Shown: positions 1,642 to 2,651 of the stretch, one piece after another
How positions within the stretch are numbered: the stretch's first letter is position 1
How the letters are laid out: each line of letters opens with the position of its first letter
NCBI RefSeq assembly: GCF_003334315.1
Contig: NZ_QOWR01000039.1
Direction: 5' to 3' (one strand)
Source of the DNA: Escherichia coli
GTDB lineage: Bacteria; Pseudomonadota; Gammaproteobacteria; Enterobacterales; Enterobacteriaceae
Length of the DNA: 44,728 nt
The notes under the pieces: generated by a model
The model's database searches: none
Told to the model about the DNA's origin: nothing
The model's input: the letters and a program-made list of their open reading frames with translations, nothing else
Made by a program: the position numbers and the translations under genes

Positions 1642-2651
1642 GTGATCATCTATGATGGAATTATAGAAAAATTGCAGTCTGGCGGTGGTGTTACCGTAGT
1701 TTTTAATGAAATTGTCTCGAGGTTAACAGAATATAAATATATTAGCTATGACACTTGTTCTAAAATATCGATAGCTAGAAACAATATGATAAAACCATCA
1801 AGATTTTTGGAACGATATAGAGATTGTGTTATTCCTGATTACAATCCTCAAGATAAGGCTATATTTCATTCGACTTATTATAGATTACCTCATCATTTGA
1901 ACATACCAGTCATAACAACAGTTCATGATTTTACCTATGAAAAGTTCGTTGATGGTCCTGCGAAGAAGATTCATTCATGGCAAAAAAATAGAGCAATACG
2001 TCGGAGTGATATAATCATCTGTGTATCACAAAATACCGCAAATGACTTGATGAGATATTGTCCGGTAAATTCCAGTCGTATTCGTGTAATATATAATGGA
2101 GTTTCAGATGAATATTATCCTTTACCCGAAATTAATAATGTTGATTCTCAAAAAGTATTGTTTGTAGGGGCAAGAGGTGGTTATAAAAACTTTGAATTAG
2201 CAATAGATGCAGTTTCCTCTGTAGCCGGATTAGAGTTACATATAGTGGGGGGGGGGATTTAACAACACAAGAAAAAATAAAATTAGAAAGTAAATTGTCG
2301 GGTAGATATTTTTGGTTGGGTAAGCTTACAAATCAAGAGCTAAATATTGCATATAATAGTAGCTATGCGTTGCTTTATCCATCAAGTTATGAAGGTTTTG
2401 GAATCCCAATTATCGAGGCAATGCGTGCTGGTTGTCCAGTTATTGCTGCGAATTCGTCTTCAATACCTGAAGTTGCTGGCGATGCGGCAATATTAGTGGA
2501 TGATTTGAATATATCTACTTTTCGCGAAGCCCTATTAAGCATACCAGCATGTCGCAATGAATTGATCTCCGCAGGTTTCGCACAGTCTAGAAAATTTTCT
2601 TGGGAGCGCTGTTTCCAGGAAACGTTATTAGCTTATAATGAATTGCTTTAA
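1642..2651 (+). pseudogene. glycosyltransferase family 4-like, split by a frameshift at a 10-G homopolymer (2247-2256)
   Basis: ORFs 1642..2262 and 2295..2651; C-terminal part carries EGFGxxxxEAMRAGCPVIA retaining-GT motif; an 8- or 11-G run would give one continuous ORF. Confidence 0.55.

Follow-up and report, generated by a model that had tools for sequence, protein, structure and literature searches.

The sequence analysed here (hereafter the window) is a 44,728-nucleotide contig of Escherichia coli (NZ_QOWR01000039.1, assembly GCF_003334315.1) whose left part belongs to an O-antigen gene cluster. In relatives, this cluster is organized in the order galF-wzx-wzy-GT-a-GT-b-GT4-gmd-fcl-gmm-manC-GT2-manB-gnd. 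With wzx, wzy, glycosyltransferase and sugar-nucleotide genes gathered between galF and gnd, the locus has the gene content by which a Wzx/Wzy-dependent O-antigen cluster is recognized; the earlier note on this DNA had rightly assigned the gene studied below to an O-antigen cluster, since in relatives it lies between galF and gnd, just upstream of gmd. The window covers the cluster from its third gene onward, beginning with a remnant of GT-a, and the wzx and wzy genes of the window strain are off the contig. None of the sources consulted attaches a serogroup label to wzx or wzy, which are described only as 'flippase' or 'hypothetical protein'; an attempt to name the serogroup through a paper on novel EPEC serogroups was abandoned because the clusters in that paper differ. 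The features of interest are listed in Table 1.

Table 1. Features of the left part of the window (positions refer to the whole 44,728-nucleotide stretch).
Feature	Position	Strand	Remarks
IS1 terminal 76 bases, contig start	1..76	.	100% identity to elements annotated as IS1 family; 72,613 places across E. coli genomes
GT-a 3' remnant, cut by IS1 at about codon 158	77..527	+	307 aa and weak GT2 Pfam match in relatives
GT-b, frameshifted	520..1631	+	370 aa in relatives; ORFs 520-1167 (215 aa) and 1116-1631 (171 aa)
A8 tract, -1 frameshift in GT-b	1101..1108	+	A9 in all relatives whose gene is intact
GT4-family (GT-B fold) glycosyltransferase pseudogene	1642..2651	+	Intact form 1011 bp / 336 aa, WP_087895188.1
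5' ORF of GT4, 206 aa, ends ...HIVGGGI-stop	1642..2262	+	N-terminal acceptor domain and first beta-alpha-beta of C-terminal domain
G10 tract (intact alleles G11)	2247..2256	+	Last base of Val GTG and three Gly GGG codons, V-G-G-G motif
Premature TAA stop from -1 frameshift	2260..2262	+	
3' ORF of GT4, 118 aa, TTG start, different frame	2295..2651	+	Rest of donor-binding domain; PF00534 match
Apparently intact block gmd, fcl, gmm, manC, GT2 glycosyltransferase, manB	2669..8814	+	No indels versus relatives

The GT4 gene is interrupted at a run of G. Counting the letters gave exactly ten of them at 2247-2256, which confirms the position and length claimed earlier as well as the splitting of the gene into products of 206 and 118 aa. 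The frame at the tract reads GTG (2245-2247) GGG GGG GGG ATT TAA (2260-2262); in the intact alleles, an eleventh G provides the first base of an Asp codon (GAT). When the gene was rebuilt with 7 to 15 G, a continuous ORF was obtained for G8 (335 aa), G11 (336 aa) and G14 only, so that the earlier statement that 8 or 11 G would restore the frame holds, as it does for 14. The run is the sole G/C run longer than seven across the 44.7 kb. Indeed, the window contains 17 G5 runs, no run of G6 to G9 and a single G10, and a first-order Markov model predicts 0.046 G/C runs of ten or more per window and 0.0016 in the AT-rich O-antigen part; the run is therefore not a chance feature.

The intact G11 protein matches both PF13439 (Glyco_transf_4) and PF00534 (Glycos_transf_1), in keeping with its earlier designation as a GT4 glycosyltransferase. 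In the window, PF13439 matches the 5' ORF and PF00534 the 3' ORF. The two GT4 domains are thus carried by two ORFs in different frames and not by a single polypeptide, which makes the window copy a pseudogene of a GT4 family member. Residues 77-335 of the intact protein align to solved GT4 enzymes, phmmer matches MshA-type and WbnH GT4 structures (E = 8e-11 to 2e-7), and the E-x7-E motif (EGFGIPIIE, window 2391-2417), located downstream of the tract, is kept in 12 homologues. NCBIfam gave generic sub-threshold GT4 matches only; the annotation in the three complete genomes that carry the gene is family 4 (or family 1) glycosyltransferase. The 206-aa product is expected to be inactive, because all that remains of the enzyme is the acceptor domain and the first donor beta-alpha-beta unit; most of the domain that binds the nucleotide sugar, with the E-x7-E motif, is lost.

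The tract spells out a Val-Gly-Gly-Gly motif that is invariant in the 12 homologues (54-98% identity). The Aeromonas, Citrobacter and Edwardsiella orthologues encode this motif as GTT GGT GGT GGA/GGT or GTT GGC GGT GGA, without any tract, whereas the E. coli alleles use GTG GGG GGG GGG followed by GAT, hence G11. Given the mixed codons of the orthologues and the low share of GGG among the Gly codons of the cluster (about 11-17%), the tract is a lineage-specific choice of codons superimposed on a motif conserved in the protein. The gene was found in three of 5426 complete E. coli genomes, in each case as an intact 1011-bp CDS with G11.

The lesion in GT4 is one of three. Three consecutive glycosyltransferase genes are hit, namely GT-a by IS1, GT-b by an A9-to-A8 contraction and GT4 by the G11-to-G10 contraction, the first two having been missed by the earlier note. 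Alignments to relatives show that homology to the intact cluster starts at base 77, within GT-a: this base corresponds to position 10612 of L004, inside the CDS at 10139-11062, and the remnant lies in a mechanical ORF spanning 63-527. A deletion or rearrangement may have accompanied the IS1 insertion, the other flank of which lies off the contig. Note that the gmd-fcl-gmm-manC-GT2-manB block downstream of these genes is about 99% identical in many unrelated E. coli that do not have the three upstream glycosyltransferase genes; judging from this distribution, the gmd-to-manB segment is a sugar-nucleotide module common to different O-antigen clusters.

G11 is the intact state: it is found in the three complete genomes and in about 180 public contigs of other lineages, and all ten G11 loci that we fetched also carry A9. 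The 336-aa product has exact entries in 212 blocks of the collection; counted by exact sequence, this allele is present in 104 contigs, and a variant allele whose product is 98% identical (98.6% in DNA) in 59. The two longest homopolymers of the intact cluster are precisely G11 and then A9, and both discrepancies of the window sit exactly there. This is what one would see if the strain were truly G11 and A9 and the draft assembly had under-called the two runs. In addition, the public tract variants are all contractions, with no G12 among them, some public contigs evidently under-call homopolymers (L023, L038 and the contig encoding the G8 product P0147), and two Logan contigs of the window lineage (L031 and L032) end inside the tract, where reads are poor. 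The distribution of the allele nevertheless makes a sequencing or assembly error very improbable. The exact 206-aa product was found in eight contigs (NCBI, ENA metagenomes and Logan assemblies). Among the sequences of the lineage, window 48-12262 is found at 100% identity in Logan contig SRR1122540_93 (seen in 5 samples), the match to metagenome contig ERZ4258480 starts at base 23 of the window and includes the IS1 junction and A8, and runs SRR25039417/18/20 show the IS1 junction and A8 as in the window. SRR1122540 possibly represents the reads behind the window assembly, in which case the remaining samples would still be independent. Every contig that has the IS1 junction and A8 and spans the tract has G10, whatever its source and year, and look-ups of the A8 product and of the IS1-junction product gave only contigs with the same full configuration. 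Conversely, G11 and A9 are what is assembled in about 180 contigs from other lineages, most of them short-read.

The remainder of the window does not bear the mark of miscounted homopolymers either. Compared with 38M23CPO015, the closest complete genome, 31,289 aligned bases contain six gap columns, the coding ones being A9-to-A8 and G11-to-G10 only; the remaining four are 1-bp differences at 11944 (upstream of the wzz start), at 29668 (between sbmC and yeeA) and at 26181/26185, a compensating pair 4 bp apart. From 31000 to 44651, the window is 100% identical, in a single aligned piece, to other complete genomes. No other coding indel was thus detected where close references exist (window 77-31361 and 31000-44651), that is, over the 44.6 kb of non-IS sequence, and relatives show the same length at the two other A8 runs, at 726 and 6267. 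Both ends of the contig lie in repeats, IS1 on the left and a probable IS end on the right, as is typical of short-read assemblies, and short-read assemblies rarely miscount 8- to 11-mers at the consensus level. An artefact would be expected to be irreproducible and to come with other homopolymer miscalls, and the window allele shows neither property. Because G10 and A8 are perfectly linked to one lineage, which neither a random nor a systematic miscount can explain, we regard the G10 allele as genuine and heritable.

This conclusion does not extend to every tract length in public assemblies. L023 and L038 contain several under-called A runs alongside G9/G10, and the in-frame G8 product P0147 is encoded by a long-read contig of 4.76 Mb. 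The public census of tract lengths is thus contaminated by homopolymer artefacts, which inflate the frequency of the hot spot described below; the tract is mis-called in some long-read or noisy assemblies, and public tract lengths need read-level confirmation. We also considered whether the breaks in L031 (2203 bp) and L032 (2202 bp) reflected within-sample heterogeneity and discarded the idea: both contigs stop after three to four G, which suggests a collapse of read quality or coverage at the poly-G and not a G10/G11 bubble.

The GT4 gene has too few SNPs to resolve lineages, and we therefore compared the 8.1-kb downstream flank through gnd. The window, L007 and L005 are identical over the 8.1 kb downstream of the tract and differ from 38M23CPO015 (G11) at four positions. 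L005 (GCA_002462895.1, 4 samples) and L010 (DRR848884) form a sister lineage that has G10 along with a 4042-bp deletion running from wzx into GT-b (junction at 9533/9534 in L005 and 467/468 in L010, equivalent to window ~1175). The 216-aa ORF that the deletion creates is a fusion between the 5' end of wzx and a point in the middle of GT-b. G10 is thus common to two sub-lineages whose other lesions differ, which suggests that G10 came first and the other lesions later, the sister lineage being the evidence for this order; no intermediate with IS1 or A8 alone turned up in the product look-ups, which gave only contigs with both.

The tract has failed on other backgrounds as well. L006 and L008, which are the same and have G10, differ from LR-29-1 (G11) by one to three mismatches and one G, and from the window at 61 positions in the 8.1 kb; their G10 is thus an independent event, in an otherwise intact cluster. 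As for the second, diverged allele, L037 and L039 (G10) are identical to Z1323HEC0462 (G11) except for the tract, and their G10 calls could be assembly errors. Finally, L024 (ERR4221163) combines a G9 tract with a different IS1 in GT-b (IS1 at L024 1-27). G12 was never found on either allele in the public contigs. The tract is therefore a recurrent, contraction-biased mutational hot spot, and OFF alleles tend to persist and gather damage. The earlier suspicion that the tract is slippage-prone is borne out in this respect, G10 having arisen on at least three backgrounds. The literature search on strains and accessions including QOWR01, NKEV01, SRR1122540 and LR-29-1 found no paper.

These data can be accounted for in several ways, and in our view the window most probably holds an inherited -1 slippage frameshift that is one of three lesions in a decaying array of pseudogenes, i.e. 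a dead gene at a hot spot in a lineage predicted to be rough. Replication slippage on the G11 that encodes Val-Gly-Gly-Gly would have produced G10 and a -1 frameshift, and the resulting 206-aa truncated GT4 would leave the O unit incomplete. The cluster would then decay through IS1 insertion, slippage at the next-longest homopolymer or deletion, and the fact that A9 and G11 are the two longest homopolymers fits such a slippage-driven decay. The later lesions could be due to relaxed selection; alternatively, as the literature would suggest, they could block earlier steps and so relieve the accumulation of dead-end lipid-linked intermediates that sequester undecaprenyl phosphate. That the same lesion is seen on other backgrounds would be explained by the tract being a mutational hot spot. 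With three consecutive glycosyltransferase genes broken, the cluster is a pseudogene array in decay, and a rough or O-nontypeable phenotype is predicted for the strain.

A quite different view is that G11 is maintained as a reversible slipped-strand switch between smooth and rough, the window being in the OFF phase. The tract has much of what a contingency locus requires: as in the Neisseria lgt genes, it is located inside the ORF of an LPS glycosyltransferase and specifies a run of Gly; it has a length that permits slippage (at least eight G, with G10 here and G11 in intact alleles); and its length varies so as to toggle the frame, with G11, G10 and G9 among near-identical sequences, some of them artefacts. 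OFF lengths occur on at least three backgrounds and in roughly 5-8% of contigs, and in L006/L008 and L037 the remainder of the cluster is intact. Moreover, the tract is uninterrupted in two E. coli alleles while the orthologues encode the motif without it and GGG is a minor Gly codon in the cluster, but these alleles are only 1.4% apart in DNA, a divergence too small for conservation of the tract to be meaningful. E. coli also offers a precedent, the reversible A7-A6 frameshift of kpsC in the K96 capsule locus (PMC13410964). What the tract does not display is reversibility. There is no expansion to G12, so that the switch looks one-way, and the gene is ON in about 95% of contigs. The window, the sister lineage and L024 all carry extra lesions; among the four OFF lineages that can be judged, two or three have IS1 or deletion lesions, meaning that OFF persists and decays and does not flip back. 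In the window, the two additional lesions would render a reversion useless. Besides, E. coli has functional mismatch repair, and simple repeats are generally avoided in its coding sequences (Lin and Kussell, PMC3315296). We therefore consider a maintained switch unlikely, and equally unlikely the related proposal that GTG GGG GGG GGG GAT is a selected codon arrangement that gives a rare fucose/mannose-type serogroup a heritable smooth-to-rough switch. Were it true, the switch could serve, for example, to escape O-antigen-specific phages or antibody, and rough lineages such as that of the window would be its evolutionary dead ends. It would also be, to our knowledge, the first O-antigen phase variation driven by a simple sequence repeat described in E. 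coli. In the contig itself, the tract is not operating as a switch, since two neighbouring genes are broken as well and the pathway would stay blocked even if the tract returned to G11.

It is still less credible that the split gene retains activity, either through -1 ribosomal or transcriptional slippage on the G run or as a two-chain enzyme, and we give this reading almost no weight. The G GGG GGG sequence does match the X XXY YYZ slippery pattern, a 118-aa ORF with the E-x7-E motif lies downstream of the break, and long homopolymers permit some polymerase slippage, a phenomenon established for A/T runs. However, the region downstream of the run has no stimulatory RNA structure (MFE -7.8 kcal/mol, z = -0.31), and programmed frameshifting was rejected on this ground. 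As for a two-chain enzyme, the break falls inside the C-terminal Rossmann domain and not in the interdomain linker, neither fragment would contain the thirteen residues 206-218 of the intact protein (DLTTQEKIKLESK), and inspection of the sequence upstream of the TTG at 2295 revealed no convincing ribosome-binding site or good Shine-Dalgarno sequence. Leaky rescue is thus unlikely, given the absence of RNA structure, the position of the break and the blockage of the pathway at two other genes. Altogether, the earlier note had left the choice between a phase-variable gene, an inactivated gene and a sequencing error; inactivation stands, an error is made unlikely by the recurrence of the allele in independent assemblies, and a working switch in this contig by the two further lesions.

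The inherited, slippage-derived inactivation that we favor can be placed with respect to known systems. Poly-G tracts are found in LOS and capsule genes, such as lgtA, lgtC and lgtD of Neisseria and wlaN and cgtA of Campylobacter jejuni. The E. coli tract appears analogous to these in being a coding G tract in a surface-glycan glycosyltransferase gene that encodes a glycine run, where a one-base change causes a frameshift and truncation. The Neisseria and Campylobacter loci, however, switch fast and reversibly, longer and shorter tracts are both common, and the genes are otherwise intact, whereas among public contigs the E. coli tract is about 95% ON and shows contractions only, and its OFF alleles gather lesions. 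The host differs as well: unlike those systems, it is a mismatch-repair-proficient E. coli. The futA and futB genes of Helicobacter pylori, which encode Lewis-antigen fucosyltransferases and contain poly-C tracts, are bona fide phase-variable genes of a naturally hypermutable species. There too, a homopolymer in an O-antigen glycosyltransferase gene controls the presence of a sugar, but the enzyme family is different from GT4.

Loss of O antigen through lesions in the rfb cluster is well known in E. coli, as exemplified by wbbL::IS5 in K-12, IS1 in E. coli B and a deletion in O14. The window resembles these rough strains in that glycosyltransferase genes between galF and gnd are irreversibly inactivated by IS1, with a deletion in the sister lineage; it differs in that two of its three lesions are homopolymer frameshifts, one of them at an exceptionally long and recurrently failing G tract. 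IS-mediated lesions have likewise been described in the antigen clusters of 'safe' strains (PMC3032704), and rough or deleted E. coli type strains are on record (PMC7685785). Within E. coli, the closest precedent for a surface-polysaccharide gene toggled by a homopolymer is kpsC of the K96 group 3 capsule: reversion between A7 and A6 was shown experimentally, and natural isolates repeatedly carried the frameshift, the locus also being subject to IS insertions and deletions (PMC13410964). Both cases are homopolymer frameshifts in a surface-polysaccharide gene of E. coli, but the kpsC tract is A7 and that of GT4 is G11, much longer and rarer in this species.

The event is therefore of a known kind, namely the inactivation of an LPS glycosyltransferase by a homopolymer frameshift in a decaying O-antigen cluster: the mechanism is ordinary and the host unusual. 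What is out of the ordinary is that an 11-G tract exists, and recurrently fails, in E. coli. Such a coding tract is exceptional in this species and constitutes a recurrent loss-of-function hot spot in a surface-antigen gene, and it offers a natural setting in which to ask whether enterobacteria with functional mismatch repair can exploit homopolymer contingency loci. The pile-up of lesions may reflect relaxed selection, or selection for blocks at earlier steps after the loss of a late one. There is also a practical side: in-silico serotypers may still call an O type from the surviving genes, although a lineage with three dead glycosyltransferase genes should be O-rough or nontypeable.

Several minor observations were made on the rest of the contig. 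In the gnd-ugd spacer, at window 10595, the 7-bp unit CGCAGTA is present once, compared to twice in LR-29-1, and small intergenic 1-bp differences are seen at 10641, 13004 (T8 versus T7) and 29668. The last ~77 bases (44652-44728) form a multi-copy repeat that occurs at 19,213 places in E. coli genomes, with no feature annotated under the best matches; the repeat is probably an IS end, and we take it to resemble the IS2 terminus. A CP4-44-like island extends from ~31500 to 44650, downstream of tmaR. It contains cbtA, cbeA, yeeS, yeeT, an antirestriction gene, a DUF932 gene, a GTPase gene and a patatin-like phospholipase / RdcB-family / dynamin-family trio. In LR-29-1 the island is absent at this site, and cobUST is found a short distance beyond tmaR. 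Finally, cbtA is annotated as frameshifted in GPEC548, a genome that is 100.0% identical to the window over 31000-44651 (megablast, one piece).
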